A stretch of 64,000 bases of DNA. It comes from Gemmatimonadales bacterium. Lineage in GTDB: Bacteria > Gemmatimonadota > Gemmatimonadetes > Gemmatimonadales > GWC2-71-9. Every line of letters begins with the position of its first letter. Position 1 is the stretch's first letter. The stretch is taken from NCBI GenBank assembly GCA_041613315.1, contig JBFJHJ010000005.1:1-64000 (forward strand), given 5' to 3'. This document shows, in pieces, positions 2,400 to 33,264 of the stretch. The translations under genes were made by a program, and so were the position numbers. The notes beneath the pieces are model-generated. The model worked only from the letters and a program-made list of their open reading frames with translations. It had not been told where the DNA came from and searched no databases.

Positions 2400-3545
2400 A
2401 TGTTTGATCCGTTTTCTCATCCCTGGGCCGACGGGGACACGCTCGGCCAGCATCTCGCGTCGCGGGGTGTGAGCCGCCGGGAGTTCCTCGCCTTCTGCGG
2501 CGAGCTGTGTGCGATCCTGGGCTTGGGCCAAGCGATGGTGCCGAAGGTCGCAGACGCGCTCCAGCAACAGCGCCGCCCCACCGTCATCTGGCTCCAACTC
2601 CAGGAGTGCACCGGCTGCGTCGAGAGCGTGCTCCGGACGTCGGAGCCAACGATCGGTGACCTCGTGCTCGATCTCGTCTCCCTCGACTACCAGCACACGA
2701 TCATGGCGGCGGCGGGTGACGCGGCGGAGCGAGCGCTCAAGAAATCCATGGCCGACAACCGGGGCCGCTATCTGCTCGTCGTGACGGGATCCATCCCGCT
2801 GAAAGACGGCGGCATCTACACCACCATCGGGGGTCGCACGGCCAAGACGATCCTGGAGGAGGCGGGGGCGGGCGCCGCGGCGGTGATCGCCGTGGGGGCG
2901 TGCGCCCATTGGGGGAGTGTGCAGGCCGCGCGGCCGAATCCGACTGGGGCGGTGGGCGTGTCGGAGATCATCACGGACAAGCCGGTGGTCAACATCGCGG
3001 GATGCCCGCCCATCGCCGACGTCGTCACGGCGACCATCGCGCACTACCTCACGTTTGGCCGGATCCCCGGGCTCGACGCGGACGGCCGGCCCCTCTTCGC
3101 GTACGGCGCGCGGATCCACGATCAGTGCCCGCGCCGCGCCAACTACGACGCCGGCCAGTTTGTGGAGGTCTTCGACGACGACGCGGCGCGGCGGGGGTGG
3201 TGTCTGTACAAGGTCGGCTGTAAGGGACCCGCCGCCTTCTCGCCCTGCCCGATCTTCCAATGGAACACGCGGACGAGTTGGCCGATCGGCGCGGGGCACC
3301 CCTGCATTGGCTGCACGGAACGGCACTTCTGGGACACCATGACGCCGTTCTACGGGCGGCTCCCCAACGTGGCCGGCTTCGGCGTCGAGAGCCGAGTGGA
3401 CACCATCGGCGCCGCGCTGGCGGTCGGCGCCGCGGCCGGTGTGGCCGCACACGCGATCGCCACCGGCGTCCATCGGATGCGGCGCGGTCGCGAACTGCCC
3501 GTGATCGACAAGCCGCCGGCGCGGCAGGAGGGTGACCGTGGCTAG
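2400..3545 (+). CDS. hyaA: [NiFe] hydrogenase small subunit (group 1, Tat-exported, C-terminal anchor)
   Basis: Tat motif SRREFL; ECTGC, GCPP, HDQCPRR, WCLYKVGCKGP, HPCIGC; C-terminal TM helix. Confidence 0.95.
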   Translation: MFDPFSHPWADGDTLGQHLASRGVSRREFLAFCGELCAILGLGQAMVPKVADALQQQRRPTVIWLQLQECTGCVESVLRTSEPTIGDLVLDLVSLDYQHTIMAAAGDAAERALKKSMADNRGRYLLVVTGSIPLKDGGIYTTIGGRTAKTILEEAGAGAAAVIAVGACAHWGSVQAARPNPTGAVGVSEIITDKPVVNIAGCPPIADVVTATIAHYLTFGRIPGLDADGRPLFAYGARIHDQCPRRANYDAGQFVEVFDDDAARRGWCLYKVGCKGPAAFSPCPIFQWNTRTSWPIGAGHPCIGCTERHFWDTMTPFYGRLPNVAGFGVESRVDTIGAALAVGAAAGVAAHAIATGVHRMRRGRELPVIDKPPARQEGDRG

Positions 3546-5253
3546 AACCAAAGTCGTCGTCGACCCCATCACGCGCATCGAAGGACACTTGCGTATCGAG
3601 GTGCAAGCGGAAAACGCGCGGATCGCGGACGCGTGGGCATCGTCCACGCAGTTCCGCGGCATTGAGATCATCCTGCAGGGACGTGACCCGCGGGATGCCT
3701 GGGCGTTCACTCAGCGCATCTGCGGCGTGTGCACGGTCGTGCACGCCGTGGCGTCGTGCCGCGCCGTCGAAGACGCGCTCGACATCCGGATCCCGGCCAA
3801 CGCGAACATCATCCGGAATCTCATTCACGGGATGCAGTTCGTTCAGGACCACGTGGTCCACTTCTATCACCTCCACGCCCTCGACTGGGTGGATGTCGTG
3901 AGCGCGTTGTCGGCCGATCCGGCCGGGACGGCGCGGATCGCGCGGCAAGTGTCGCCGTGGCCGAACAACTCGGAGACCTACTTCCGCGAGGTACAGGACC
4001 GCCTCAAGAAATTCGTGTCCGGGGGCCAGCTCGGGATCTTCACTAACGGTTACTGGGGACACCCGGCGTACAAGTTGCCGCCGGAAGTGAACCTGCTCGC
4101 CGTCGCGCACTACCTCGAGGCGCTCGACTGGCAGCGCGACGTGATCCGGCTACACACCGTCTTCGGCGGCAAGAATCCGCACCCCAATTTCCTGGTGGGC
4201 GGCATGGCGTCGGCGATCAACCTCGACGACACCGCGACCATCAACGCCGAACGCCTCACGGATATCCGCGACATGATCCGGCGGGCGCGGCGGTTCGTCG
4301 AACAGGTGTACTGGCCCGATCTGGTGGCGATCGCCGGCTTCTACAAGGACTGGGCGGCGATCGGCGGGGGGACCGGCAACTTCCTCGCCGTCGGTGAGTT
4401 CCCGGAAAACGATGTCCGCGATCCGGCTTCCCTCTATCTCCCGCGCGGTATCATCCTGGGAAAGAACCTGAACGAGGTTCATCCCTACGACCACGAGAAG
4501 GTCAAGGAGTACGTCACGCACTCCTGGTATGAGTATGCGGGCGGCGATGAGGTGGGATTGCACCCCTGGGAGGGGGAGACGAAGGCGAAGTACGTCGGCC
4601 CCAACCCGCCGTGGACCTTCCTCCAGGACGAAGACAAGTACTCGTGGATGAAGGCGCCTCGGTACGACGGGCAGCCTATGGAGGTGGGACCCCTGGCCCG
4701 CATGCTCGTGGCGTACGGCGCCGGCCATGAGGGCGCCCGGGAGCTGGTGACCGAGGTGTTGAGCCGGCTTGGGGTGGGCCCCGCCGCGCTCTTTTCCACC
4801 TTGGGCCGCACGGCCGCCCGTGGCATTGAGACGGTGCTCCTCGCGCACCGTCTGGAGAAGTGGTACGACGACCTCGTCACCCGGATCAAGAGCGGTGACG
4901 TGACGACGTTTACGCGGGATCGCTGGGAGCCCAAGACCTGGCCGCGCGAAGCCCAGGGATACGGCTACCTCGACGCGCCCCGCGGCGCTCTGGGACACTG
5001 GGTCCAGATCCGGAACGAGAAGATCTCCCGCTATCAATGCGTCGTTCCCAGCACGTGGAACTGCTCGCCTCGGGACGCGGCCGGCCAGATGGGCCCGTAC
5101 GAGTCGGCGCTGGTGGACAACCACCCGCTCGTCGACCCCGAGCGTCCCGTCGAGATCCTCCGCACCATCCACTCGTTCGATCCGTGCATGGCCTGCGGCG
5201 TTCATGTCCTCGACGCAGCGGGTGAGCTGGTCACCGAGGTGAAGGTCCAATGA
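3532..5253 (+). CDS. hyaB: [NiFe] hydrogenase large subunit
   Basis: DPITRIEGH; L1 QRICGVCTVVH; L2 SFDPCMACGVH followed by a cleavable C-terminal tail. Confidence 0.97.
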   Translation: MTVARTKVVVDPITRIEGHLRIEVQAENARIADAWASSTQFRGIEIILQGRDPRDAWAFTQRICGVCTVVHAVASCRAVEDALDIRIPANANIIRNLIHGMQFVQDHVVHFYHLHALDWVDVVSALSADPAGTARIARQVSPWPNNSETYFREVQDRLKKFVSGGQLGIFTNGYWGHPAYKLPPEVNLLAVAHYLEALDWQRDVIRLHTVFGGKNPHPNFLVGGMASAINLDDTATINAERLTDIRDMIRRARRFVEQVYWPDLVAIAGFYKDWAAIGGGTGNFLAVGEFPENDVRDPASLYLPRGIILGKNLNEVHPYDHEKVKEYVTHSWYEYAGGDEVGLHPWEGETKAKYVGPNPPWTFLQDEDKYSWMKAPRYDGQPMEVGPLARMLVAYGAGHEGARELVTEVLSRLGVGPAALFSTLGRTAARGIETVLLAHRLEKWYDDLVTRIKSGDVTTFTRDRWEPKTWPREAQGYGYLDAPRGALGHWVQIRNEKISRYQCVVPSTWNCSPRDAAGQMGPYESALVDNHPLVDPERPVEILRTIHSFDPCMACGVHVLDAAGELVTEVKVQ

Positions 5254-5984
5254 CGAACACGGCGATGCCGGCCGAACCGACCGCCGCGATGGCGCGTCGC
5301 GGCGAGTCGACGCACTGCTGGGTGTATCTGTGGCACCTGCCCGTCCGGGTGATGCACTGGATCGCGGCCGTCGCTGTCGTGGCGCTGATCGTCACGGGCT
5401 TCTACATCGGCCGACCCTATTTCATGACGGGCGGGGAGGCCGCGTCACCGTTCACGATGGGTTGGATGCGGTTCATCCACTTTACGTCCGCCGCGGTGCT
5501 GATCGCCACGGGGATCGTGCGCATGTACTGGCTGTTCGTGGGCAACCGCTACGAGCGCTGGAAATCGCTGTTCCCGTACCATCCCACGGACTGGAAGAAC
5601 GCCTACCGGGTTCTGAAGAAGTACGTCTTGGTCATTCCCGAACGGGCGCCCCATTACCTGGGTCATAATCCCTTGCAGCAGATCAGCTACACCGCCCTGT
5701 ACGGCGTGGTGGTGGTGCAGGCGCTGACCGGGTTCGCGATGTACGGGCAGTCGACTCCCGGCGGGTTCTTCCATACCACCTTTGGATGGGTGACATCGTT
5801 GCTCGGCGGTATCCAAATGTTGCACTTCGTGCACCACGTGCTCACGTGGGTGTTCATCATTTTCATTCCCATCCACATCTACCTGACGGTGCGCGCCGAC
5901 GCGCTCCACCGCGAGGGGCGGGTGTCCTCGATGATCAGCGGCGGCCGGTTCGTCCGGTGCGACCTCGACTACGTCGATGACTGA
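5250..5984 (+). CDS. hyaC: Ni/Fe-hydrogenase cytochrome b subunit
   Basis: VRVMHW, RFIHF, GHNPLQ, HHVLTW, IHIY, SMISG. Confidence 0.93.
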   Translation: MTNTAMPAEPTAAMARRGESTHCWVYLWHLPVRVMHWIAAVAVVALIVTGFYIGRPYFMTGGEAASPFTMGWMRFIHFTSAAVLIATGIVRMYWLFVGNRYERWKSLFPYHPTDWKNAYRVLKKYVLVIPERAPHYLGHNPLQQISYTALYGVVVVQALTGFAMYGQSTPGGFFHTTFGWVTSLLGGIQMLHFVHHVLTWVFIIFIPIHIYLTVRADALHREGRVSSMISGGRFVRCDLDYVDD

Positions 5985-6489
5985 CCGGCCCGGCGGGGGA
6001 ACCGTCGTGATCGGCCTCGGGAATCCGCTCATGGCGGACGACGGCCTGGGGCTCGCCGCGCTGGAGGCCCTGCGGCACGGGTGGACGTTCGAGCCGCACG
6101 TGGAGCTCGTGGACGGCGGGACGTGGGGCATGAACCTGCTGTACCTCATTGAGGACGCCGACCGTGTGCTGTTGCTGGACGCGATCAACGTCGAGGCGCC
6201 CCCGGGTGACGTGGTCGAGCTGGAGCGCGACGCCCTGCCACGGATGTTCGGGCTCAAGATCTCGCCGCACCAGATTGACATGCGCGAAGTCCTGGCGTTG
6301 GCACAGCTCCGTGACACACTGCCACGGGAGATCGTGGCCATGGGGCTTCAGCCCGAGCGGGTGGAGATGTCCACGGAGGTCACGCCCGCGCTCCGCGCCG
6401 GGCTGCCGGCGCTCACGGAGCGCGCGCTCGCGCGGCTCGCCGCCTGGGGCCACCACTCTCGAGCGCGGAGCACCGCGGTCCGTGCATGA
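5977..6489 (+). CDS. hyaD: Hydrogenase maturation protease
   Basis: GLGNPLMADDGLG, DGGT, LDA, SPHQ. Confidence 0.93.
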   Translation: MTDRPGGGTVVIGLGNPLMADDGLGLAALEALRHGWTFEPHVELVDGGTWGMNLLYLIEDADRVLLLDAINVEAPPGDVVELERDALPRMFGLKISPHQIDMREVLALAQLRDTLPREIVAMGLQPERVEMSTEVTPALRAGLPALTERALARLAAWGHHSRARSTAVRA

Positions 6490-6742
6490 GATGAGCATCG
6501 CGCTCGAAGTGTGCCGAATAACGGAAGCGCACGTCGGCCGGGACCAGCTTCCGCACGTCGTGAGCGTCGCTCTCGAGATCGGTGACGATGCCGGCGTGGA
6601 AGTGGAGAACTTGCAGTTCTGCCTCGAAGCGCTCCTGGCTCACCCGCCCTTCGCCGGCGCCACGCCGGTGATCGCTCGGCGGCCGGGCGACGTGCTTCGG
6701 GTGACGCAGCTGGAGGTGGATGATGGCCATCCGAACCATTGA
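6482..6742 (+). CDS. hypA: Hydrogenase nickel chaperone HypA, short form
   Basis: GTG start gives MHEMSIA; LQFC; position before hypB; no CxxC motifs. Confidence 0.85.
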   Translation: MHEMSIALEVCRITEAHVGRDQLPHVVSVALEIGDDAGVEVENLQFCLEALLAHPPFAGATPVIARRPGDVLRVTQLEVDDGHPNH

Positions 6743-7394
6743 CGTACGGGAACGTGTGATGGCGAAGAACGACGAGTTGGCCGCCGAGGTTCGCCGGCGG
6801 CTCGCCGCGCACCGGGTCCGCGCGTTCAACCTGGTATCGTCGCCCGGATCGGGGAAGACGCTGCTGCTGGAGCGCACACTGGCACGGCTCGGCTGGCAGT
6901 TCGAGATCGCCGTCATCACGGGCGACGTGCAGACGCGCAATGACGCCGAACGATTGGCCCGACACACCGATCAGTTGGTCCAGGCCGTGGTGACGGGCGG
7001 CGCCTGCCACCTCGACGCGCGCCAGATAATGGCGGCCCTCGAGGCGATCGACCTCGCACAGACCGACATCCTCTTCATCGAGAACGTTGGCAACTTGGTC
7101 TGCCCCGCGAGCTGGGACCTCGGAGAGGCCGCGAAGATCGTCGTGTTCTCCGTCACCGAGGGTGAGGACAAGCCGCTCAAGTATCCGAAGATGTTCCAGC
7201 AGGCCGCGTACGCCGTCCTCAACAAGATGGATCTGCTGCCGTATCTGGAGTTCGACGTGCAGCGCGCCGTCGGCTACGCACGCGAGATCAATCCCGGCCT
7301 CCAGTTCTTCTTCACTTCGGCGCTGACCGGGCTCGGCCTCGACGAGTGGATTGAGTTCGTTCGCACCCAGACCGCGGAGGTCGCCACCGCGTGA
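6720..7394 (+). CDS. hypB: Hydrogenase nickel-insertion GTPase HypB
   Basis: SPGSGKT, GGACHLDA, ENVGNLVCP, KPLKYP, NKMD. Confidence 0.96.
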   Translation: MMAIRTIDVRERVMAKNDELAAEVRRRLAAHRVRAFNLVSSPGSGKTLLLERTLARLGWQFEIAVITGDVQTRNDAERLARHTDQLVQAVVTGGACHLDARQIMAALEAIDLAQTDILFIENVGNLVCPASWDLGEAAKIVVFSVTEGEDKPLKYPKMFQQAAYAVLNKMDLLPYLEFDVQRAVGYAREINPGLQFFFTSALTGLGLDEWIEFVRTQTAEVATA

Positions 7395-9700
7395 CGGCCG
7401 GCCTTCCCGGGACCGCAGAGCGCGTTGCGCTCCTGCTGCACGTGCGCGGCGTCGTGCAGGGAGTGGGGTTCCGGCCTTTCGTACACCGCTTGGCGCTCCG
7501 AGAAGGTCTGCGAGGGTGGGTGCGGAATGAGTCGGGCGAGGTACGCATCGCCATCGAGGGAACGTATGAACGTCTCCTCGCCTTCCTGACGGCCCTGGTG
7601 CACGACTCGCCGCCGCTCAGCCGCATAGACTCGCTCGAGATCGAGCCGACCGACCCAAGGCATCCGGAAGGCTTCGAGATCGCGGTGAGCCTCACCGATC
7701 AGGCGGAACGCCGCCAGTTGATCGCGCCCGATGTAGCGATGTGCCCGGCGTGCGAGAGCGAGTTGGTGGAACCCGGTAATCGCCGTTTCCGGTATCCGTT
7801 CATCACCTGCACCGACTGCGGTCCACGATTCACCGTGATCGAGTCGATGCCGTACGATCGAGAGCGGACGAGCATGCGCGCCTTCACGCAGTGCTCCGAC
7901 TGTCTCCGCGAGTACACGACGCCGTGGGACCGGCGGTATCACTCCGAAACGAATAGCTGCCCGGCCTGCGGGCCCCGTCTCACGCTCCTCGCGGCCGATC
8001 CGGGCTCCGCGCCCCAGGTTCGCACCGACCCGATCGCGTCGGCGGCACGGCTGCTTCGACTCGGGCTCATCGTCGCCGTGCGCGGCCTTGGCGGCTTCCA
8101 CCTTGCGGTCGATGCCACGAACGACGAGGCCGTCCGCCGACTCCGTCGCCGCAAGGGGCGCGAAAGGAAGCCCCTGGCCGTGATGGTGCGAACGCTTGAC
8201 GACGCCCGTCGCGTCGCCGTGATCGGCCCTACGGAGGAGCGGCTGTTGACCGGCCGCGAGCGCCCGATCGTGCTCCTGCGCCGCCTGCCACAGTCCGGAC
8301 TCGCCGCGTCGGTTGCGCCGGGTCTGACGGACGTGGGCCTGATGACCGCGTACACCCCGCTCCATCATGTGCTGCTGGACGCGGTCCAGCGCCCGCTCGT
8401 GATGACCAGCGGCAACGCGAGTGAAGAGCCGATTGCCACCGGTGTGGACGAGGCGCGGCAGCGGTTGCGTGACATCGCAGACGCGTTTCTCGTGCATGAC
8501 CGCGAGATCGTCGCCCGATACGACGACTCGGTGGTGCGGGTGGTCGAAGATACTCCGGTCTTCCTCCGCCGCGCACGCGGCTACGCGCCGCTGCCGCTCG
8601 AGTTGCCGCTCGCCGCGGTCCGGCCGCTGGTCGCGGTCGGCCCCCACCTGAAGAACACCTTCACGCTGGCCCAGGGCCGCACCGCCTGGGTCAGCCAGCA
8701 CATCGGCGATCTGGACGACCTCGAAACGCTGGAATACTTCCGCCGAACGCTTGCGGAGTATCGGCGACTCTTCGGGGTGGATCCCGACATCGCGGTGCGC
8801 GACGCGCACCCCGGGTACCTCTCGACGCGCGTGGCCGACGAGCTGGGGCTCGAGCACGTGATCTCGGTCCAGCACCACCACGCACACATCGCCGCCGTGG
8901 CCGCCGAACATGGCCGCACCGACCGCGTGGTGGGCGTGGCGTATGACGGCACCGGTTACGGGGACGACGGGACCGTGTGGGGCGCAGAAGTCCTCGTCGC
9001 GAACCTGGCCGGCTACGAGAGAGTTGGGCACCTCACCGCTGCGCCCCTCCCCGGAGGCGACCTCGCAATTCGCCGGCCGTGGCGGGCCGCCCTTGGGTAC
9101 CTCTCTCTCGCTCCGGAGGCAGCGTCGGCCTTCGCCCGCGCGTTCCACGGGGTCGACCCCGCAGAGCGCGAGCTGGCGACGCGTCAGATCGAGCGCCGGT
9201 TGAACGCGCCGCTCGCATCCTCGATGGGACGCCTGTTCGACGCCGCGGCCGCCGTCCTCGGCGTGCGCGGCGTCGCCCACTACGAGGGCCAGGCCGCCAT
9301 GGAACTCGAGGCGTTGGCCGGCGAGCGCGTCGGGGCCGCGCTGCCGTTTCCGCTCGGCGAGGACACAGACGGCCGCTGGCTCCTCGACCCGCTCCCGCTC
9401 CTCGTGGCGCTGGGCGAGGGCATCCAGCGCGGCATATCGGCTGCCGACCTCGCCGCAGCGTTTCATGAGAGCGTCGCCGTCGCGACGTCCGAGCTGGCGT
9501 GTCGCGCCGCCCGGCGAGCCGGCCTCGACACGGTCGCTCTGGGAGGCGGGGTATTCCAAAACGCCCGGCTACTTGCGGCCACCCGGCGACGACTCGAAGA
9601 TGAGCGGCTGCACGTGCTCGTGCCCCAGCGGTTGAGTCCCAATGACGGTGCCATCAGCTACGGTCAGGCGGCCGTCGCGGCGGCGCTCCTGGAGCGGTGA
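7391..9700 (+). CDS. hypF: Carbamoyltransferase HypF
   Basis: GVVQGVGFRPFV, CxxC-x18-CxxC zinc fingers, QHHHAH, NDGAISYGQ. Confidence 0.97.
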   Translation: MTAGLPGTAERVALLLHVRGVVQGVGFRPFVHRLALREGLRGWVRNESGEVRIAIEGTYERLLAFLTALVHDSPPLSRIDSLEIEPTDPRHPEGFEIAVSLTDQAERRQLIAPDVAMCPACESELVEPGNRRFRYPFITCTDCGPRFTVIESMPYDRERTSMRAFTQCSDCLREYTTPWDRRYHSETNSCPACGPRLTLLAADPGSAPQVRTDPIASAARLLRLGLIVAVRGLGGFHLAVDATNDEAVRRLRRRKGRERKPLAVMVRTLDDARRVAVIGPTEERLLTGRERPIVLLRRLPQSGLAASVAPGLTDVGLMTAYTPLHHVLLDAVQRPLVMTSGNASEEPIATGVDEARQRLRDIADAFLVHDREIVARYDDSVVRVVEDTPVFLRRARGYAPLPLELPLAAVRPLVAVGPHLKNTFTLAQGRTAWVSQHIGDLDDLETLEYFRRTLAEYRRLFGVDPDIAVRDAHPGYLSTRVADELGLEHVISVQHHHAHIAAVAAEHGRTDRVVGVAYDGTGYGDDGTVWGAEVLVANLAGYERVGHLTAAPLPGGDLAIRRPWRAALGYLSLAPEAASAFARAFHGVDPAERELATRQIERRLNAPLASSMGRLFDAAAAVLGVRGVAHYEGQAAMELEALAGERVGAALPFPLGEDTDGRWLLDPLPLLVALGEGIQRGISAADLAAAFHESVAVATSELACRAARRAGLDTVALGGGVFQNARLLAATRRRLEDERLHVLVPQRLSPNDGAISYGQAAVAAALLER

Positions 9701-9702
9701 CA

Positions 9703-10146
9703 ATGCGAATCCCCCGGTCGGTCGAGCAGGAACACGACGAACTGCATCATGAGCTGGACGAGGTATCGCGGCTCGGCGGACAAACCGGCGACGCCGCCAA
9801 GCGCCTGGCCCGCATTCTGCAGCCCCACTTCATCCGCGAGAACGACTACGCCGTCCCGCCGCTCTCGCTCCTGCAGCAGCTGACGCGGGGCACCGTGACG
9901 GCCGAGATGCGGTGGGTCTTACCCCTTGTCGAGCGTCTCAAGAGTGAGATGCCGCTGATGCTGCGAGAGCACGATGCGATCCGAGGTGCGCTCCACGACC
10001 TGGCTACCGCGGCTGAAAGCGAAGGGCACACGAACGCAAGGCACTTCGCCGAGCGGCTCCAGCGGCACGCCAAGATGGAGGAGGAGGTGCTCTATCCGGC
10101 CGCGATCCTCGTTGGAGAACTCGTCAAGTCGCGACTCGCGACATGA
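9703..10146 (+). CDS. Hemerythrin-like (HHE) domain protein
   Basis: EHDELH, HFIRE, EHDAI, HAKMEEEVLYP. Confidence 0.8.
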   Translation: MRIPRSVEQEHDELHHELDEVSRLGGQTGDAAKRLARILQPHFIRENDYAVPPLSLLQQLTRGTVTAEMRWVLPLVERLKSEMPLMLREHDAIRGALHDLATAAESEGHTNARHFAERLQRHAKMEEEVLYPAAILVGELVKSRLAT

Positions 10147-10153
10147 GGGTGAC

Positions 10154-10453
10154 ATGTGCCTAGGCATTCCCGGAAGAATCATCGAGATCCATGACGATGC
10201 CGGCCTCCCGATGGGAGTGGTGGACTTTGGGGGGGTCCGGCGTGAGGTCTGCCTGGCGTACGTCGCTGATCAGGTGCGTTCGGGAGACTACGCCATCGTC
10301 CACGTGGGCTTCGCGATCTCGAAAGTCGACGAGGCGGAGGCCATGCGAACCTTCGAGGCGCTGCGTCAGATGAGCCAACTCGACGAGCTCGAGTGGATGA
10401 AGGAAGTGGCCGAGCGCAGCCTGGCCGGCGCCCCGCCCACGGAGGACCCGTGA
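10154..10453 (+). CDS. hypC: HypC/HybG chaperone
   Basis: MCLGIPG, VDFGG, VHVGFAI. Confidence 0.95.
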
Positions 10454-11562
10454 GGTACTTGAGTGAGTACCGCGACCCCGCGCTCGCCCGACTCCTGATC
10501 GACCGGATCCGGAGCGCCGCGACACGCCGCTGGGTGCTGATGGAAGTGTGCGGCGGGCAGACCCACACGATCGTCAAGCAGGGCCTGAACGAGATTCTCG
10601 CCGACCAGGTGGAGATGATCCACGGCCCCGGGTGCCCGGTGTGCGTGACACCGTTGGAGCAGATCGACCGCGCGCTCCACCTGGCCGCCGACCCGCGGGT
10701 GATCTTCACGTCCTTCGGCGACATGCTCCGCGTGCCCGGCACCACGTCCGACCTGTTCCAGATCCGCGCCGGGGGCGGCGACGTCCGCGTGGTGTACTCC
10801 CCGCTCGATGCCCTCGACCTCGCCCGGCGACATCCCGACCGTGAAGTCGCGTTTTTCGCGGTGGGCTTCGAGACGACGGCGCCGGCGAACGCGATGGCGG
10901 TGTGGCGGGCGCGAACCCTCGGCGTTCGCAATTTCAGCGTGCTCGTGTCACACGTCACCGTGCCACCGGCCATGGTGGCGATCCTCCAGTCGCCGGTCAA
11001 CCGCGTGCAGGGATTCCTCGCCGCCGGCCACGTCTGCACGGTGATGGGTTGGACGGAGTATGAGCCGCTGGCCCGCAAGTACCGTGTCCCCATCGTCGTC
11101 ACGGGTTTCGAACCGCTCGACATCCTGGAAGGGATGCTGATGGCGGTCCGCCAGCTGGAAGCCGGGCGGTTCGAGGTCGAGAACCAGTATGTCCGTTCGG
11201 TGCGCCGTGAGGGCAACCAGCCCGCACAGGAACTCATCGCTCGGGTATTTCGGTTGGTGGACCGCTCATGGCGCGGCATCGGTGAGATCCCGGCCAGCGG
11301 ACTGGCGCTGACCGACGAATTCGCCGAGTTCGATGCAGAACGCAAGTTCGGGCTCGGAGACATCCGCGCGACCGAACCGCCCGAGTGCCGAGCCGGCGAT
11401 GTCCTGCGCGGCCAGCTCAAGCCCATGCAGTGCGCCGCCTTCGGTTCGCGGTGCACACCCGAGTATCCGCTGGGCGCGCCCATGGTATCCTCGGAGGGCG
11501 CGTGCGCTGCCTACTACAATTACGGCCGCTACCGGTCCGTCGCTCCCGGGATGCTGTCGTGA
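10450..11562 (+). CDS. hypD: HypD
   Basis: [31 protein letters not shown]. Confidence 0.96.
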
Positions 11563-12623
11563 CCGCCACGCGCCCGCATGCGGACGGGATGGCGTGCCCG
11601 CTCCCGCACGCGGCGCTGGACCGTGTGCAGCTGGGACACGGCTCCGGCGGCAAGATGAGCGCGGCGCTGCTGCGCGAGCGCTTCCTCCCACGCTTCGCGA
11701 ACGAGGTACTGCTCCGCCTGGGTGATGGCGCGGTGGTGCCTGCGACCGGCGAGGAGCTGGCCGTCTCGACCGACAGCTTCGTCGTGCACCCCCTGGAGTT
11801 CCCGGGCGGGAACATCGGGCATCTGGCGGTGCACGGCACCCTGAACGACATCGCGATGATGGGCGCCGAGCCCCGCTACCTCGCGGCCGGGTTCATCCTC
11901 GAGGAGGGGTTGCCTCTCGACGTATTGGACCGCGTGCTCGACGCGATGGCCGGCGCGGCCCGCCTCGCCGGCGTGCCGTTGATCACCGGGGACACGAAGG
12001 TGGTCGAGCGGGGGAAGGCGGACGGGATGTTCATCAACACGACCGGCGTGGGCGTCGTGCAGGACGGCTTCCGTCCCGACCCCCGCGGCGCGCGGCCCGG
12101 TGACTGCGTGCTCGTCACCGGTCCTATCGGCCGTCACGGTATCGCCGTCATGGCCGTTCGCGAGGGGCTCGCCTTCGAGGTCGAAGTCGAGAGTGACACG
12201 GCGGCCGTGTACCCCCTTGTGCGACTGCTGCGGAGCCGTGCCGGCCCCGGGGTGCACACCCTGCGCGATCCGACCCGGGGCGGCGTCGCCAGCGCGCTCA
12301 ACGAGATCGCGGCCGCCGCCGGAGTCGGCATCGTCCTCGACGAGAGCCGGCTCCCGATCCCCGAGCCGGTGGCGGCCGCCTGCGAGATGCTGGGCCTCGA
12401 CCCGCTCTACGTCGCCAACGAGGGCATCTTCGTCGCGATCGTCGCCGCCGATGTGGCGCAGGCGGCGGTCGCGGCACTGCGTTCGCATCCGCTGGGTGCC
12501 GGGACCGTGACGATCGGGTCGGTCGTGAATACCCATCCCGGCATGGTCGTCCTCCAAACCGGCCTGGGCGGCAGCCGCATCGTCGACATGTTGCCCGGCG
12601 ACCAACTGCCCCGCATCTGCTGA
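11559..12623 (+). CDS. hypE: HypE
   Basis: HGSGG, TGDTKV, RDPTRGG, C-terminal LPRIC. Confidence 0.96.
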
Positions 12624-12657
12624 CGGGGCGCAGGCTCGGCGCCTCTCCGGACCGGTC

Positions 12658-12701
12658 TTCACGAACCGTTCAGGCCCCACTCATCCGCCGCGCCGTAGGT
12701 T
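12658..12701 (+). promoter_or_regulatory. Direct-repeat array and -10 upstream of USP gene
   Basis: TTCA 12658, TTCA 12669, CTCA 12680; TAGGTT at 12696. Confidence 0.65.
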
Positions 12702-12761
12702 GCACCGGCTTCGGGCCGCGGAAGCCGGGTGACCCGACGCCGCACGCGTGAGGGTGCCCGT

Positions 12762-13667
12762 ATGGCAACCACGACCATTCTCGTGCCGCTCGACGGCTCG
12801 CGCCTTGGTGAGGCGGCCTTGCCCGCCGCCCTGACGCTGGCGGCAGCCCTGCCCGCAGATCTCGAGCTCGTCTCGGTTGCCGAGCACGACCCGATGACCG
12901 CCGGGTGGCGCCTCTCGTCCGAGCGGGTGCACGAGTGGTTCGTGGGCTACCTCGGCGACATCTGCGATCGGATTGGCGAAGTCTCCGCCGTGCCGATTTC
13001 GACGAAGGTCCTCGACGGGTCCGTCGCGGAGCGGCTGGAGGAGCGCGCCAAACTGACCGGCGCCGGCCTGATCGTGATGGCGACACACGGCCGCGGACCG
13101 GTCAGCCGCGCCTGGCTCGGCAGCGTCGCCGATCATGTCATGCGGCATGTCACATTCCCGGTCCTGCTCATCCGACCGGACACCGACAACGGCGTCAGCC
13201 TCGATGCCACCCCGCAGTTTCGTCGGATCGTGATCGCTCTCGACGGATCGGAACGTGCCGAGGCGAGCCTTCCCTGGGCGACCCGCATCGGCCGCGCCTT
13301 CCATGCCACGTACACCCTGGTCCGCGCCGTGCCCCCGCACTTCGCGCCGTCGCCGTATCTGCCCCATGTGATCGAGGAAACGCAAGGCAGACTCGAGGAG
13401 GAAGCCACGGAGGCCCACGCCTATGTGGAACGGGTTCGGACGCGCCTGGGCTCGGAGGAGCGCATCGTCGAGGGCGCGGTCGCCGTTGGCGTCCAACCGG
13501 CGGCAGCGATTGTGCGGGTCGCGGCGGAGGAACGCGCCGACCTAATCGCCATCGCCACACACGGCCGCGGTGGGCTGGGCAAGCTGATGCTCGGCAGCGT
13601 GGCCGACAAGGTTCTCCGCAGCGCCACCACACCGGTCCTGATGATCCGTTCGCCAACGGCTCCTTAA
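12762..13667 (+). CDS. Tandem-domain universal stress protein
   Basis: ILVPLDGS; two ATHGR...LGSVAD motifs. Confidence 0.93.
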
Positions 13668-13718
13668 GGATTCTTTAAGATCGCGTTCACCCGGACCTCA
13701 TTGCCGCCCGTCTACGTT
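13664..13718 (+). promoter_or_regulatory. Direct-repeat array and -10 upstream of USP pair
   Basis: TTAA 13664, TTAA 13675, TTCA 13686, CTCA 13697; TACGTT at 13713. Confidence 0.7.
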
Positions 13719-13761
13719 CGCTCCACGCCTGACACGTGTGGACCTGAACCGGACTGGTGAG

Positions 13762-14694: not shown

Positions 14695-14707
14695 AAGAGG
14701 GACGATC

Positions 14708-19932: not shown

Positions 19933-19988
19933 GCCGAACGGCCGACCCTTGCCGGTTGTCCATCACTCGCGGGGCCTCCACACGGGCA

Positions 19989-20032
19989 TTCAAACCGCCT
20001 TCATCGAGGCTTCACGGGTCCCGGGAGATAGT
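19989..20032 (+). promoter_or_regulatory. Direct-repeat array upstream of small Cys-containing protein
   Basis: TTCA at 19989, 20000, 20011; GATAGT at 20027. Confidence 0.65.
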
Positions 20033-20082
20033 ACTTGGACGAGCAACGCCCCGCATGCATCCCAATGGCGTCGGAGGGAACC

Positions 20083-21111: not shown

Positions 21112-21261
21112 CCTGAGGCGCCCCTTCGCACGATCCACGCCGGCCACGTGCTCTGCCCCGTGGCTCGGTTACCGGTGGAACTAAGCCGGGCGCCGCTAAA
21201 AGGACTTCCCATCTTCCGTGAACAAGGGTTTAGTTTCCGTGGCCGCCACTGCGGAAACGTC

Positions 21262-22512: not shown

Positions 22513-22563
22513 AGGAGCCTTCATGATCCATTAAAGACCTGCTTACGCCCCCAGCGGTACGGT
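22509..22563 (+). promoter_or_regulatory. Direct-repeat array and -10 upstream of response regulator (likely autoregulatory)
   Basis: ATGA 22509, TTCA 22520, TTAA 22531, CTTA 22542; TACGGT at 22558. Confidence 0.65.
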
Positions 22564-22570
22564 TAGCGCC

Positions 22571-23254
22571 ATGAAGATCCTCGTGGTGGAGGACGACCGA
22601 AAGGTCGCCGGTTTCATTGAGATGGGCCTCCGAGAGGAAGGCTACGCTGTGGACGTCGCCAAGGACGGCGAAGAAGCCACGGTGCTGGCGCACGTCAACC
22701 AGTACGACGCCATCCTCCTCGATCTCATGCTCCCGAAGAAGAACGGCCTCCAGGTGGCGTCCGAGCTGCGACGCGAGGGGCGAACGACGCCCATCATGAT
22801 GCTCACGGCCCGGGATGCCACGGAGGAGGTTGTCCGCGGCCTCGACGCGGGCGCCGACGACTACCTCACGAAGCCGTTCAAGTTCGACGAGCTGCTGGCC
22901 CGCCTCCGGGCGCTGGTCCGCCGCGGCGGCGCCGCCCGGCTGGACCTCCTGAGCTACGGCCCCCTCGAGCTGAGCCGCCTCAAGCACAAGGCCTTTGCCA
23001 ACGATAAACCCCTGGATCTCACGCCCCGTGAGTTCCAGCTGCTGGAGCATTTCATGCTCCACCCCGACGAGGTCATTCGGCGCACCGAGCTGCTCGAGAA
23101 GGTCTGGGACATGCACTTCGACCCCGAAAGCAACGTCGTCGATGTGCACGTCGGGAACCTCCGGCGGAAGCTCCGGCAGGCGGGGTGCAACGGCGTGATC
23201 CAAACCGTGCGAGGCGTCGGGTTCGTGCTCAAGAAGCCCAACGGAGACTCCTAG
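22571..23254 (+). CDS. OmpR/PhoB-family response regulator
   Basis: VEDD, LLDLMLP, GADDYLTKPF, LTPREF, SNVVDVHVGNLRRKL, TVRGVGF. Confidence 0.96.
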   Translation: MKILVVEDDRKVAGFIEMGLREEGYAVDVAKDGEEATVLAHVNQYDAILLDLMLPKKNGLQVASELRREGRTTPIMMLTARDATEEVVRGLDAGADDYLTKPFKFDELLARLRALVRRGGAARLDLLSYGPLELSRLKHKAFANDKPLDLTPREFQLLEHFMLHPDEVIRRTELLEKVWDMHFDPESNVVDVHVGNLRRKLRQAGCNGVIQTVRGVGFVLKKPNGDS

Positions 23255-23259: not shown

Positions 23260-24639
23260 ATGTACTCCCTGCGCCGCACCCTCGCGGTGCGGCTCTCACT
23301 CACCATCTTCCTCGCCCTCCTGCTCATCGCGTTCTGGGCATCGATGGGTGCGCAGCACATCCTCCGGGACGAGCTGGACCGCGGGCTCGCCGCGGCGGCT
23401 CAGCTCGAGTCGGCGGTCCTCGCGACCGGCCTGCCGCTCCCCGGGCATCACGGCCCGCCGGAGGAAGCCACCTTCGTCCTCGAGGTCAACCGCTTCGTTG
23501 CCGTGCGGGACACGGCGGGCGGGATCCTCCAGGGCAATACGGTATTGGCGCTCGACCTCCCCCTCGACCGTCGGAGCTTCGAGCGCGCCCGGGCCGGCCA
23601 CGACGTGTGGATCACGCAGCCGTGGCGCGGTGACAAGGTGCGCTCGCTGTATCACCCGGTCCCGGCGGGTAGTGGCCCGAACCGGGCGGTGGTCCAGGTC
23701 GCGGCGTCCCTGAAGCCGCTGGCCGACGACCGCCGACGGATGATGGTACTCATGCTCGGAACGGTCGTCCTCGGAACCGTGGCCACCGCCATGGGCGCCG
23801 GCTGGCTCGCCGGTTCGGCCGTGACCCCCGTCCACGAGATCACCCAGCAAGCGGACGCCATCACCGCGGGCACCACCGGCCAACGCATCACCGCCCATGC
23901 CGATGTCGAGGAGTATCATGGGTTGATCACCGTGTTGAACCGTATGCTCGACCGCCTCGACCGCGCTCTCGCGGCCGAACGCCGCATCATTGCCGACGTG
24001 GGGCACGACTTGCGCACACCGATCACGGCGATGCGGGGCCAGATCGAGATCGCCCTCCGCGGTGCCCGCGAACGCGAACAGTACCGCGACGTCTTGCGGA
24101 GCGTGCTGGAAGAGGTGGATCGGCTCAACTCGATCAGCGAGGCGCTCGTACTCCTGGCCCGCATCGAAGCCGGCGAGCTGCGTCCGGAGCGACGCCCCGC
24201 GGACCTGGTCGATCTGCTGGAACAAGCCGCCGGACGCGCTCGGAGCCGGGCCGGCAACCGCGTGATCCGGGTCGCCGCCGACGGTGAGGTTCGGGTGGCG
24301 GTGGATGAAGGAATGATCCGCACGGTCGTCGATCACTTGTTGGACAACGCCGTACGTCACACGCCCGCCGGAACCACGATCGACGTGGCGGCGCGCGCCG
24401 ACGGTTCCACTGTCGCGCTGTCCGTCGACGACGACGGGGCGGGCATCTCCCCTGAGGCGTTACCGCACCTGTTCCAGCGGTTCTACCGCTGCGACGAGGC
24501 CCGCACCCGCACTGCCGGAGCTGGCCTCGGCCTCAGCATCGCCGCCGCGATCGCCGCCGCTCACGGAGGCACCATCGCCGCCGATCACTCTGACCGGGGC
24601 GGCCTCCGCATTACGCTCCACCTCCCGCGGCTCACGTAG
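23260..24639 (+). CDS. Membrane sensor histidine kinase (2 TM, HAMP)
   Basis: Two TMs, HAMP, GHDLRTP, LLDNAVRH, DDGAG, GAGLGL. Confidence 0.93.
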   Translation: MYSLRRTLAVRLSLTIFLALLLIAFWASMGAQHILRDELDRGLAAAAQLESAVLATGLPLPGHHGPPEEATFVLEVNRFVAVRDTAGGILQGNTVLALDLPLDRRSFERARAGHDVWITQPWRGDKVRSLYHPVPAGSGPNRAVVQVAASLKPLADDRRRMMVLMLGTVVLGTVATAMGAGWLAGSAVTPVHEITQQADAITAGTTGQRITAHADVEEYHGLITVLNRMLDRLDRALAAERRIIADVGHDLRTPITAMRGQIEIALRGAREREQYRDVLRSVLEEVDRLNSISEALVLLARIEAGELRPERRPADLVDLLEQAAGRARSRAGNRVIRVAADGEVRVAVDEGMIRTVVDHLLDNAVRHTPAGTTIDVAARADGSTVALSVDDDGAGISPEALPHLFQRFYRCDEARTRTAGAGLGLSIAAAIAAAHGGTIAADHSDRGGLRITLHLPRLT

Positions 24640-26768: not shown

Positions 26769-26812
26769 CAGAGACGACGCGGGGGGACCGCCGGCGGCGG
26801 CCCTCCGCGTGT

Positions 26813-26868
26813 ATGAAGATGTCTTCAGAATCCCGTCACCCTCCTTTCAGCGCGGGTCGGCTTAACTG
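26813..26868 (+). promoter_or_regulatory. Direct-repeat array upstream of nos operon
   Basis: ATGA 26813, TTCA 26824, GTCA 26835, TTCA 26846; TTAACT at 26862 (imperfect -10). Confidence 0.62.
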
Positions 26869-26900: not shown

Positions 26901-27422
26901 ATGCCGATCGTCATGCTTGCCCGAAGCTCGGGCGGCGTCGGAATACGCGGCTACCTCGTGTCGCTCACGCTGTTCGGCGCCCTCCTCGGTACCGCCGCGT
27001 GCGGCGGACGGACCGAAGGCGCTCGCGAGCAGATGGGCATGGAGCACCGCGGGACGGGACGGGTGGCCGAGCAAACGCCGCCATCGGGCACCGGAGCCGC
27101 GTCTGCGGCGGCGCCCGCACCTGGATCACCCATCGATGAGGCGCTCGCCGAGCGCGGCGAGCAGTTGTTCCAGTCCAAGGGCTGCATCGGCTGCCACACG
27201 ATCGGGAAGGGCCGCCTCACGGGCCCCGACCTCGCAGGGGTGGTCGATCGGCGCAACTACGACTGGCTCATGGCCATGATCACGAACCCCGACTCCATGC
27301 TCAAGAACGACGCGGCGGCGCGCCAGCTCTTCGCCGAGTACATGACCCCGATGTTGAACATGGGCGTGACGCAGGACGAAGCGCGGGCGCTCTACGAGTT
27401 CCTGCGCGAGGAATCCCACTGA
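26901..27422 (+). CDS. nos-associated monoheme cytochrome c (likely lipoprotein; start uncertain)
   Basis: TAAC lipobox-like; CIGCH; GPDL; Y.TPM; directly upstream of nosZ. Confidence 0.88.
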   Translation: MPIVMLARSSGGVGIRGYLVSLTLFGALLGTAACGGRTEGAREQMGMEHRGTGRVAEQTPPSGTGAASAAAPAPGSPIDEALAERGEQLFQSKGCIGCHTIGKGRLTGPDLAGVVDRRNYDWLMAMITNPDSMLKNDAAARQLFAEYMTPMLNMGVTQDEARALYEFLREESH

Positions 27423-27486: not shown

Positions 27487-29451
<1,965 letters not shown>

Positions 29452-32446: not shown

Positions 32447-33264
32447 CGGCGCGTGTCGGATTGATCGTCCAACGTGAGCTCGCGACGTCGCTGCAGAGCC
32501 GCTGGTTCTTCGTGTATTCGGGAATCGTGCTCGCCGCCGGGGTGATCCTCGCCACGCTCGGCTTGAGCGACTTCGCCATCCACGGCTACCGCGGTCTGGC
32601 CAAGGCGTTCGCGGGGCTCGTGCACCTCGCCTTGCTCTTCGTGCCGCTGCTGGCGCTGTTCCCCGCGACCGCAGCGATCACCGAAGACCGAGAAAGCGGG
32701 GCCCTCGAGTACGTCCTGGCGCAGCCCGTCAGCTTCGGCGAGGTGTTCGCCGGCAAGTGGGGAGGGGTGAGCGCGGCGCTCCTCCTCGCCCTCACCGCCG
32801 GCTTCGGCGTCGCGGGGGCGGTTGCCGCCCTGCGCGGCGTCCCGCCCGGCCTGCTGGTGGCGCTCTACGGGTTCGTGGTGCTCCTGGCGCTCGCCTTCGT
32901 CTCCGTCGGCCTCCTCTGCTCCGTCGTCAGCGAGTCACGCGCCCGCGCCACGACCATGGGCATCGTCGTGTGGCTCGTCCTGGTCGCCCTGGGGACGCTC
33001 GGGATCATGGTGGCCTTCGTGCGGTGGGGACTGCCGGAGACCGTGCTCGCGGTGTGGACGTTCGTGAATCCCGTCGAGGCCTTTCGAATCGGCGTGCTCA
33101 GTATCCTCGATCCCGACCTGAGTCTCCTCGGGCCGGTCGGAGCGGGAATCGTGACGCGCGTAGGTAGCGCCGGAACCGCCGGGCTTGCGGCGGTCGCGCT
33201 GAGCGTGTGGGTCGTGGCCCCCGCGCTGCTTGGCTGGTGGCGGTTCGCCCGGGGGCGGATCTAG
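32443..33264 (+). CDS. nosY: NosY ABC permease
   Basis: Multi-TM; DRESGALEYVLAQP, NPVEAFR. Confidence 0.9.
   Translation: MTARVGLIVQRELATSLQSRWFFVYSGIVLAAGVILATLGLSDFAIHGYRGLAKAFAGLVHLALLFVPLLALFPATAAITEDRESGALEYVLAQPVSFGEVFAGKWGGVSAALLLALTAGFGVAGAVAALRGVPPGLLVALYGFVVLLALAFVSVGLLCSVVSESRARATTMGIVVWLVLVALGTLGIMVAFVRWGLPETVLAVWTFVNPVEAFRIGVLSILDPDLSLLGPVGAGIVTRVGSAGTAGLAAVALSVWVVAPALLGWWRFARGRI

Follow-up and report, generated by a model that had tools for sequence, protein, structure and literature searches.

A putative DosRS-like low-oxygen regulon in a Gemmatimonadales family, with hydrogenase, oxidase and N2O reductase genes among its predicted targets

The genes between positions 2400 and 33264 of the window, the 64,000-nucleotide stretch of DNA analysed here, probably form the core of a DosRS-like low-oxygen regulon of a Gemmatimonadales family, judging from a haem-GAF kinase, an OmpR-type regulator and a repeat motif that stands in the leader of the regulator and in those of nos, usp and hya. 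The enzymes are individually well known. A broader reading is put forward tentatively: in most of the family, a hitherto undescribed haem O2 sensor with a DosS-type GAF and an OmpR pathway may combine into one programme in which H2 fuels hypoxic respiration of O2 or N2O, its targets being ba3 or cbb3 oxidases interchangeably, clade II nosZ of three lineages, the group 1f hydrogenase and dormancy proteins. The source is a marine Gemmatimonadales MAG (completeness 82.9%, contamination 0.08%), labelled G000 in a comparison set of 200 relatives (G173, G081 and so on), in which the family comprises 89 genomes.

Respiratory genes of the stretch

Every gene named in an earlier note on this DNA was recovered, unbroken and on the + strand, by an open reading frame scan and profile searches, placing hyaABCD, hypA-B-F-C-D-E, cbaDBA, two mono-haem cytochromes c and nosZ-B-D-F-Y in 2400-33264. 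To that list are added four usp genes, a CBS gene, two ZIP transporters, the haem-GAF kinase, the OmpR-type regulator, a membrane kinase and a porin.

25..402, + strand: usp gene, its 5' part beyond the contig start (PF00582)
2400..3545, + strand: hyaA, small subunit (TIGR00391, 440.8 bits; twin-arginine signal, C-terminal membrane anchor, without Cys19/Cys120)
3532..5253, + strand: hyaB, group 1 [NiFe] large subunit, 1f-like (profile match, tree, motif comparison)
5250..5984, + strand: hyaC, cytochrome b (TIGR02125, 189.6 bits)
5977..6489, + strand: hyaD, maturation protease (TIGR00072)
6482..6742, + strand: hypA, short form without the zinc finger (PF01155 positions 1-69 of 112)
6720..12623, + strand: hypB, hypF, hemerythrin-like gene, hypC, hypD, hypE (profile matches)
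9697-10146, + strand: the hemerythrin-like gene, between hypF and hypC (profile match)
12762..15634, + strand: three two-domain universal stress proteins (profile matches)
15675..16076, + strand: stand-alone CBS-pair protein (profile match)
16199-16339, + strand: cbaD, of a ba3-type B-family oxygen reductase operon
16336-16821, + strand: cbaB, CuA motif present
16818-18440, + strand: cbaA, best PDB matches Thermus ba3 (E 6.5e-124), His-x3-Tyr kept
18458..19932, - strand: two ZIP-family metal transporters (ZupT matches below cut-off)
20596..21147, - strand: lipoprotein-like ORF of no known family, in 7/41 sensor loci
21265..22512, + strand: soluble histidine kinase with one DosS/DosT-type GAF (His118, Tyr140), HisKA and HATPase
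22571..23254, + strand: OmpR-family response regulator (profile match)
23260..24639, + strand: membrane HAMP histidine kinase, optional among sensor loci
24696-24938, + strand: YgaP/DUF2892 protein (profile match)
25093-25509, + strand: cytochrome c (profile match)
25692-26768, + strand: porin (profile match)
26901..27422, + strand: lipoprotein cytochrome c (PF00034), adjoining nosZ in relatives
27487..29451, + strand: nosZ, clade II (TIGR04246, 869.9 bits, cut-off 625; lipobox-like signal, CuZ and CuA ligand motifs)
29578-30183, + strand: nosB (profile match)
30180-31523, + strand: nosD (profile match)
31520-32446, + strand: nosF (profile match)
32443-33264, + strand: nosY (profile match)
starts 60813, + strand: PF02621 gene (profile match)

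From hyaA to hypE the genes form a single overlapping run, with intergenic gaps of -20 to +7 nt and a 14-nt overlap between hyaA and hyaB. The L1 and L2 cysteine motifs, the Tat-exported and anchored small subunit, the cytochrome b, which we take to be the quinone-reducing subunit, and the maturation genes are those of a group 1 respiratory [NiFe] hydrogenase. The O2-tolerant group 1d was rejected, as Gly and Ser replace Cys19 and Cys120, both of which are kept in the E. coli and Cupriavidus controls; so was the Isp-type group 1e, as the hyaA-hyaB overlap leaves no room for isp1/isp2 and the enzyme falls outside the Chromatiaceae clade by FastTree. It is likely group 1f-like, having three subunits including cytochrome b, two [4Fe4S] clusters and one [3Fe4S] cluster, and short large-subunit motifs in common with the HydDB 1f entries of G. 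bemidjiensis and Corynebacterium; this label comes from layout and motifs compared by eye rather than from the HydDB classifier, the FastTree tree having contained no 1f reference. The small-large-cytochrome b order and standard proximal cluster are likewise those of HydDB group 1f (Geobacter bemidjiensis, Corynebacterium and Acidobacterium entries), whereas the window's HypA lacks the zinc finger, and the one Gemmatimonadetes row found in HydDB is group 2a.

In HydDB, group 1f carries the entry 'oxygen-protecting, unresolved role' (PMC5037454 Table 1), which, together with the small subunit's want of O2-tolerance cysteines and the hemerythrin-like gene in the operon, would suit a hydrogenase that scavenges O2 or reactive oxygen species, or acts as a redox valve, within an otherwise real hypoxia regulon. 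That role is judged quite unlikely, since the small subunit's Tat signal and anchor, together with the cytochrome b, have the anatomy of quinone-reducing uptake, and a high-affinity oxidase, ba3 or cbb3, is encoded in 53/61 hydrogenase genomes, against 54/139 others.

The oxidase has the active-site His-Tyr, K-channel analogue and CuA subunit II of a B-family O2 reductase, and on these residues CbaA is assigned as a true O2 reductase. High O2 affinity would be expected of it as a B-family member; one paper terms ba3 medium-affinity. With the Thermus thermophilus ba3 operon (cbaDBA), the window shares the three-gene order, His-x3-Tyr and aligned Tyr, Ser and Thr residues, presumably those of the proton channel; it differs in that the locus around cba is centred on the sensor and that relatives have either ba3 or cbb3 there, ba3 (46 genomes) and cbb3 (61 genomes) occupying the same slot by the sensor and never occurring in one genome. 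Neither cbb3 nor a Tyr-less B-type paralogue was found in the window genome, where the Tyr is present in the haem-copper genes, three in number, the caa3 copy not having been read at that site.

NosZ belongs to clade II by its TIGR04246 score, Sec/lipoprotein signal, CuZ histidines, CuA ligands and neighbouring nosB, and the cytochrome c at 26901..27422 is its probable electron donor. A search of the 82.9% complete assembly found no nosL (PF05573), which is common but not universal in clade II clusters. This NosZ represents a minority Gemmatimonadota lineage, separate in NosZ trees, with 42% identity to Gemmatirosa and 59% to Thermomicrobium roseum, a closeness measured by pairwise identity alone, as the Thermomicrobium protein was left out of both trees. 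The Sec-type NosZ, nosB, D, F and Y and cytochrome c also occur in Gemmatimonas aurantiaca and Gemmatirosa kalamazoonensis, which, according to the accessible parts of two papers, use N2O during transient anoxia (PMC10581226, PMC9530729).

The absence of nar, nir and nor genes from the window, claimed from the first inspection, holds: an open reading frame scan of 25-36103 found none, and genome-wide searches add none elsewhere in the window. In the genome as assembled (82.9% complete), NirS was not found and the best match to the nirK profile TIGR02376 scored 89 bits (cut-off 296). NrfHA is encoded, and a second B-type paralogue is present in 4/7 relatives with this NosZ lineage, with a Tyr-less active site in the one copy inspected. 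Hence, with this paralogue, NrfHA and an 82.9% complete assembly, the organism is no more than a candidate non-denitrifying N2O sink.

Physical linkage and assembly

The earlier note described the stretch as an island, a word that should not be taken here to imply foreign DNA. Composition is flat (GC 0.64-0.71 in the window vs ~0.70 for the genome), the nearest relatives of the genes belong to the same order, with orthologues of up to 86% identity, and the only tRNA of the window lies at 48991. By these comparisons, the genes of the stretch are native rather than acquired.

That note also read the hydrogenase, oxidase and N2O reductase genes as one module. A dedicated, physically linked H2-to-O2/N2O module inherited as a unit would be consistent with parts that are intact and adjoining in this genome, with the co-occurrence of hydrogenase and nosZ (40/61 hydrogenase genomes vs 51/139 others), and with a distance of no more than 60 kb between hya and the ba3 or cbb3 genes in 14/16 genomes with both on one contig. 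There is also a precedent in Methylacidiphilum caldifontis IT6, for which the accessible part of the source describes growth on H2 and N2O with a clade II nos and a ba3 up-regulated under N2O respiration (10.1101/2024.01.15.574570); IT6, however, is an autotroph with a group 1d enzyme, whereas the window's hydrogenase is not 1d and the genome's RuBisCO-like match is weak (82 bits).

Synteny makes inheritance as a unit unlikely. All three genes occur in 10/200 relatives, in none of them within 31 kb; in the nearest, G071, cbaA lies 16 kb and nosZ 91 kb from hyaB. Among the 40 genomes with both hyaB and nosZ, one has them within 25 kb. No hydrogenase match was found in 5/7 relatives with the window's NosZ lineage, hya is on another contig in G173 and G119, and G081, G141, G044, G056 and G077, which carry a nos or cba-nos block, gave no hydrogenase match, though fragmented assemblies conceal some linkage. 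What is conserved is a block of usp-cbs-cba-zip-sensor-regulator-cytochromes-nos, with usp3 to nosY syntenic in G173, G081 and G141, and the ZIP genes in the same position in these three, G044 and G056. The three-way physical cluster is therefore particular to this genome. Under the regulon reading, hya beside cba and nos would be a local rearrangement of members that are usually more dispersed.

The same singularity, an adjacency seen in no other sampled genome, could be expected of chance neighbours or of a chimeric assembly, and no contig piece from runs X1 or X3 covers the whole stretch in the compared interval (3000-22999). Such an origin is nevertheless highly improbable: the hypE-usp junction is bridged at even depth by independently assembled contigs from both runs (X1, 12397-16207; X3, 12551-13353) in a check that covered 3000-22999, X1 and X3 being possible source runs of this DNA. 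This evidence counters the chimerism that the earlier note had raised, as do the 0.08% contamination, the usp3-nosY synteny and the enrichment of motif sites described below.

A haem-GAF kinase, its regulator and a shared motif

The GAF domain of the soluble kinase has DosT/DevS GAF-A as its best PDB matches (E 1.7e-36), and the equivalents of His149 and Tyr171, respectively the haem ligand and the residue for ligand discrimination in DosS/DosT (PMC4082495), are invariant in 30/30 kinases. The domain layout was confirmed by a structural model (pLDDT 87.5) and its fold search, in which the matches listed were kinase cores and phytochromes and included no DosS/DosT GAF structure. Mycobacterial DosS/DosT-DosR thus resembles the window in having a soluble kinase with a haem-type GAF-A, proximal His and distal Tyr. 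Yet DosS/DosT have two tandem GAFs and the window kinase one; its core is HisKA (PF00512), whereas DevS-named matches have PF07730; and its partner is OmpR-family, whereas DosR is NarL-type. The window kinase is hence predicted to be DosS-like in function but outside the DosS/DosT family.

The kinase is found in 73/89 (the family), 5/90 and 6/21 of the relatives and the regulator in 73/89 (the family), 5/90 and 10/21, with a spacing of ~1.2-1.4 kb in most genomes. An oxidase gene, ba3 or cbb3, is found no more than 12 kb from the kinase in 31/55 genomes with both, and is co-directional with and downstream of the regulator in 12/15 loci examined; nosZ is this close to the kinase in 13/47 genomes. 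Other neighbours are Hsp20, P-type ATPase, sulfate transporter, USP and CBS genes, an echo of the mycobacterial hypoxia gene set, of which we take USP and CBS proteins to be DosR-regulon members.

In the leaders of these loci lies a direct repeat of CTTCA at 11-bp pitch, modelled by training on the sensor loci of 40 relatives with the window excluded; hand alignment of leaders had given a mere hint of it. The predicted sites of the window are:

2274..2301, + strand: before hyaA (14.6 bits, modest; -10-like hexamer 12 nt on)
12656..12683, + strand: before usp1 (16.3 bits)
13662, + strand: before the second usp (16.4 bits)
19987..20382, + strand: site with a small membrane protein of no known family (21.2 bits)
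22507..22545, + strand: before the regulator gene (25.8 bits, the genome's top score)
from 24629, + strand: before the YgaP/DUF2892 gene (12.3 bits, weak)
26811..26849, + strand: before the nos operon (25.1 bits, the genome's second-highest score)

The window thus carries 7/37 genome-wide sites, against 0.5 expected. Beyond the training set, a site stands upstream of the regulator in 8/8 loci, against a background of 22/744 leaders. The hyaA leader has a site in 33/39 genomes with the regulator and 0/21 without it, G173 and G101 having one like the window's, and the hypB control leaders have 0/38; in 7 of these 21, hyaA follows directly on hypE and no promoter is expected, leaving 0/14. For nosZ, the figures are 10/20 with the regulator and 0/20 without. 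Regulator-bearing genomes hence include site-less leaders (10/20 nosZ, 6/39 hyaA), and the two contrasts are not independent, because regulator presence largely tracks family membership; some other factor peculiar to the family could be the one that the motif serves. As it stands, this common promoter motif predicts that hya and nos are co-regulated.

The set of sites has boundaries. None was found in the window's cbaD leader, such that control of cba would need read-through from a usp promoter (a usp3 leader site is present in 2/4 relatives), in the mqnD leader, or, among the genome leaders scored, before nrfH, actA, caa3 or fdh. As for other signals, the FNR box was rejected, with no perfect match in the window, one single-mismatch match at 59878, far from the cluster, and two-mismatch matches mostly inside genes. 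Over 1500-21000, a sigma-70 scan returned 0 promoters, and terminator-like sites numbered 4 against 7.0 expected, and so a cbs-cbaD hairpin is not evidence. Two further differences from the DosR regulon are that the site is a direct repeat and that high-affinity oxidases, clade II nos and an uptake hydrogenase are among the targets predicted.

The regulator might instead sense a metal, such as copper, through the membrane kinase, the cluster gathering copper and other metal enzymes with their transporters. Among the neighbours, ba3, cbb3, NosZ and NirK-like proteins are copper enzymes; P-type ATPases flank 21/40 loci and ZIP genes 5/40; and the regulator and membrane kinase match best to TIGR01387 and TIGR01386, the best family matches of the regulator being CusR/CzcR-type. 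Both matches, however, fall short of the cut-off, the membrane kinase occurs in 12/40 loci whereas the regulator is in 35/40 GAF-kinase loci, and the motif also marks the Ni-Fe hydrogenase, USPs and a 2-oxoacid:ferredoxin oxidoreductase, making copper sensing improbable.

Predicted signalling, electron flow and reach

In the preferred reading, that of a low-oxygen regulon, the GAF domain would bind haem, keeping the kinase off with O2 bound and turning it on when O2 falls or NO or CO binds; the kinase would then phosphorylate the OmpR-family regulator, activating motif-bearing promoters. Electrons from H2 would pass through the hydrogenase and its cytochrome b to menaquinone, alternative complex III and cytochromes c, and thence to ba3 with trace O2, or to NosZ with N2O. 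The earlier suggestion of H2-fuelled respiration of O2 or N2O thereby keeps its wiring, though not its conserved three-way linkage: a search for a quinol:cytochrome c oxidoreductase found an alternative-complex-III-like operon and no bc1 complex in the genome, CbaA retains its active site, and the menaquinone gene proposed at 60813 is borne out as a PF02621 gene on the + strand, its tentative MqnD label coming from an N-terminal motif. Complex I, formate dehydrogenase and SQR are also encoded in the genome, and H2 would be one donor among several in a heterotroph, the regulon most likely serving maintenance across oxic-anoxic swings.

Gemmatimonadota clade II nosZ are among the most abundant in soils, and N2O reduction in this phylum is tied to oxic-anoxic transitions, according to the accessible parts of two papers (PMC10581226, PMC11651109). 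A literature search, which covered no bioRxiv supplementary gene tables, found no paper naming the switch for this process. Should the broader reading hold, a group of environmental N2O sinks would have a switch that responds directly to O2, and group 1f hydrogenases would have a part in respiration. The proposed regulon supplies candidates for the sensor, the regulator and the binding motif, and under it the order's hydrogenase would be an enzyme of low-oxygen conditions, induced together with nos. The cultured Gemmatimonadaceae may be unrepresentative of such control, because the nos leader of Gemmatirosa kalamazoonensis is without the site that the window's nos leader carries, and just 1/8 named Gemmatimonadaceae/Gemmatimonas hya loci has one.

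Integrity and conservation of the cluster

The genes for an H2-uptake hydrogenase (hya), ba3 oxidase (cba) and N2O reductase (nos), which an earlier note described as one island at 2400..33264, are all present, and profile and ORF inspection found none interrupted. The window forms the opening 64 kb of contig C5 in a metagenome-assembled genome (MAG) that comprises 2.63 Mb and is 82.9% complete and 0.08% contaminated, and the sequencing runs containing the window's DNA are marine metagenomes. Assembly chimerism, named in that note as a refuter, is made less likely at the hypE-usp junction, the part peculiar to this genome, which contigs from two sequencing runs (X1 and X3) span at even depth, with the comparison covering window positions 3000-22999 and both runs possibly being the source sample. 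Nor was the stretch acquired as an island: GC content along the window is flat, its sole tRNA lies 16 kb past nosY, and the nearest homologues of hyaB (hydrogenase large subunit), cbaA (ba3 oxidase) and nosZ are all within the same order.

Conservation of the three parts as a physical module is not supported. In a 200-genome sample of the order, hyaB was found in 61 genomes, nosZ in 91, and ba3-type cbaA in 46 (counted at an identity of at least 43%; 47 matches at 31-36% were set aside as a paralogue, the active site being inspected in a minority). All three co-occurred in 10/200 genomes, and within 31 kb in 0/10. hyaB and nosZ shared a contig in 5/40 genomes and were ≤25 kb apart in 1/40, and cbaA was ≤12 kb from nosZ in 5/18, with such linkage counts limited by the fragmentation of the relatives' assemblies. 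The block from usp3 (usp, universal stress protein, USP) to nosY is syntenic in the relatives G173, G081 and G141; pieces of it are found in G077, G044, G056 and G119, and hya is part of the block in none of them. Hence the three-part arrangement is local.

The predicted haem-GAF kinase and its neighbours

The hub of the stretch is a soluble kinase that the earlier note overlooked:

21265-22512: predicted haem-GAF sensor kinase
22571..23254: adjoining OmpR-family regulator

The best match of the kinase's GAF domain is the haem-binding GAF-A of DosT and DevS/DosS (E 1.7e-36). In DosS, the haem is coordinated by His149, and ligand discrimination is the role of Tyr171 (PMC4082495); the equivalent His118 and Tyr140 are invariant in 30/30 aligned kinase copies. 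Unlike DosS, the window kinase has a single GAF domain and a PF00512 core, and is therefore predicted to work like DosS without being a DosS member. Its GAF domain would bind haem, with O2, NO or CO controlling the kinase, and the adjoining regulator is its likely partner. Across three families, the kinase occurs in 73/89, 5/90 and 6/21 genomes, and the regulator has a near-identical spread (73/89, 5/90 and 10/21).

Of the 84 genomes with the kinase, 40 had their neighbourhoods surveyed, hand-chosen for genus spread and contig size and not blind to prior results. Within 20 kb around the kinase, these 40 loci contained the regulator (35), USP (25), P-type ATPase (21), CBS (9), Hsp20 (6), nosZ (6), ccoN of cbb3 oxidase (6), cbaA (4) and a NirK-like gene (3). 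The kinase was ≤12 kb from cbaA in 15/32 genomes with both, from ccoN in 16/23 and from nosZ in 13/47; other NosZ lineages were ≤25 kb away in 14/40, and hyaB ≤50 kb in 9/40. Oxidase genes lay 1.3-5.5 kb downstream of the regulator on the same strand at 12/15 loci, and therefore would fall under its promoter. This MAG has seven USP genes, and four of them fall within the stretch.

The two oxidases alternate: ba3 (46 genomes) and cbb3 (61, being 58 above cut-off and 3 split, with 17 genomes with only weak ccoN-model matches left out) never co-occurred, against 14 expected. Either was present in 53/61 hydrogenase genomes versus 54/139 others; as kin among the genomes are not independent, P values from these counts overstate.

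A shared promoter repeat

Direct repeats of CTTCA or TTCA at 11-bp pitch occur at up to 15/41 sensor loci, against 0.5 expected from spaced-word counts in intergenic DNA. A weight matrix of 59 sites, trained on 40 relatives only, with hya leaders outside the training set, ranks the window's regulator leader first and its nos leader second in the whole genome, with further window matches before hyaA, usp1, usp2, the ORF at 20035 and DUF2892. Distinct sites of at least 13 bits number 37 in the genome and seven in the window's first 34.5 kb, where 0.5 were expected. At several sites, a -10-like hexamer lies 12-13 nt past the last repeat, the geometry of PhoB-type activators; the regulator is predicted to bind these repeats.

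At a single fixed threshold of 11 bits, sites precede the regulator at 8/8 non-training loci (background 22/744 leaders), and hyaA at 25/44 Gemmatimonadota loci (shuffles 1.2%) and 3/28 in other phyla (shuffles 10%); hypB control leaders have none (0/38). Among 60 of the 61 hydrogenase genomes, the hyaA site was found in 33/39 with the regulator versus 0/21 without, seven of the latter having hypE directly upstream of hyaA; the six misses with the regulator are full-length orthologues, three scoring 9.8-10.9 bits. Upstream of nosZ, the split was 10/20 versus 0/20, both sets being hand-picked from nosZ genomes. Regulator presence mostly tracks family, which counts against these contrasts. Sites were found in 2/4 relatives' usp3 leaders, and were absent from the window's cbaD leader and from the nrfH, actA, caa3 and fdh leaders. 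Elsewhere in the genome, they precede 2-oxoacid:ferredoxin oxidoreductase, SQR, two cytochromes c and TonB receptors.

From what is directly observed, namely which genes are present, their active-site residues, their co-location and where the motif occurs, we infer a DosRS-like hypoxia regulon whose targets would be induced at low O2. The full-text literature searched, with subscription papers largely outside it, contained no DosS-like sensor, CTTCA motif or ba3/cbb3 alternation in Gemmatimonadota.

Three motif sites lie beyond the cluster:

33586 (-): 15.2 bits, preceding a small ORF at 33299-33538
48152 (+): 19.5 bits
49124 (+): 13.0 bits

Enzyme lineages and electron transfer

The hydrogenase carries a twin-Arg signal and a membrane anchor and comes with a cytochrome b; its identity is 70-84% to the enzymes of named Gemmatimonadota MAGs and no more than 61% to those of other phyla. 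Its small subunit is without Cys19 and Cys120, as is every Gemmatimonadota copy inspected; both are present in E. coli and Cupriavidus controls. In a FastTree phylogeny of 47 large subunits, Gemmatimonadota form a separate clade outside the Cys19/Cys120 and Isp-type groups. The large subunit's short motifs agree by eye with HydDB group 1f entries, and hence the enzyme is labelled only 1f-like, provisionally. HypA (window 6482-6742; loci L002-L063) is 80-97 aa long and without a CxxC pair in 34/34 Gemmatimonadota copies inspected, one of which ends at 50 aa at a locus edge; three copies inspected from other phyla have two pairs. Upstream of hyaA, 1683-2186 encodes a membrane protein with four helices that belongs to no known family, resembled by an ORF after the caa3 operon (G000:C13:49944-50540, on contig C13 of this MAG, G000).

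Some NO reductases descend from the B family and lack the Tyr (PMC11214002). CbaA, which keeps His-x3-Tyr and can be aligned with the ba3 enzyme of Thermus, is therefore not one of these but an O2 reductase. The window's NosZ belongs to clade II, with every metal-ligand motif present, and to a minority lineage in the order: among 91 nosZ genomes, seven share it at 78-85% identity and 84 match at 42-48%. Among named plasmid records, it shares 58.8% identity with Thermomicrobium roseum and 42.4% with Gemmatirosa. Gemmatimonadota have at least three distinct NosZ lineages (L107-L140), the window's also occurring in other orders of the class; primers designed from G. aurantiaca nosZ might fail to detect it.

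Another haem-copper gene, B-family-like and accompanied by a CuA subunit of its own, occurs in 47/200 genomes, 31 of them with nosZ, and in 4/7 relatives sharing the window's NosZ lineage. The one copy inspected (L096:7268-8878, in G173) has Gln, the eNOR signature, in place of the active-site Tyr; this paralogue may be an eNOR-type NO reductase overlooked by standard nor searches.

The quinol:cytochrome c oxidoreductase that the earlier note marked for a genome-wide check is represented by an alternative-complex-III-like operon. The genome also has two A-family oxidases, complex I, formate dehydrogenase with an in-frame TGA, NrfHA, type III SQR and a PF02621 menaquinone gene. Electrons could thereby pass from H2 through menaquinone, alternative complex III and cytochrome c to ba3 or NosZ. 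In the 82.9% complete assembly, NirS, bc1, cbb3, NosL and a second hydrogenase were not found, NirK, Nar and Nap had no match above cut-off, and RuBisCO had a single weak RuBisCO-like match; with 17% of the genome missing, the genes not found are therefore not true absences.

Cultured Gemmatimonas are reported to survive anoxia by using N2O, without growing (PMC11651109 and PMC9530729), which fits a maintenance role. Methylacidiphilum IT6 respires N2O with H2, with ba3 induced (10.1101/2024.01.15.574570). The enzymes and nosZ/nrfAH were already known in Gemmatimonadota (PMC10581226); the word hydrogenase is absent from that paper's main text and from PMC11651109.

Other loci of this MAG, and of the window, were as follows:

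G000:C46:3975-6888: a two-domain multicopper oxidase exported by Tat, with a DtxR-type regulator and a ZIP transporter; this locus is the source of the weak TIGR02376 match and resembles metal uptake, not NirK
G000:C8:54515-56533: NrfH and NrfA, the five NrfA haem motifs all CxxCH, with no CxxCK
G000:C13:52764-66109 (L312, L315): USP-domain protein, radical-SAM gene, lone cytochrome-bd-like subunit I, three cytochromes c and the second A-family oxidase
G000:C1:83945-86209 (L314): 14-haem cytochrome with MtrC-like domains
G000:C4:11757-13940 (L302): 4-haem c554-like protein with a motif site in its leader
G000:C28:9785-14402 (L313): molybdopterin oxidoreductase and NrfD-type partner, the top match, PhsA, being far under cut-off
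Window 34544-43305: aromatic/tryptophan catabolism block (labels by eye) of CoA ligase, creatininase-like, SDR, RidA-like, enoyl-CoA hydratase, acyl-CoA dehydrogenase, flavin oxidoreductase and tryptophan dioxygenase-like genes
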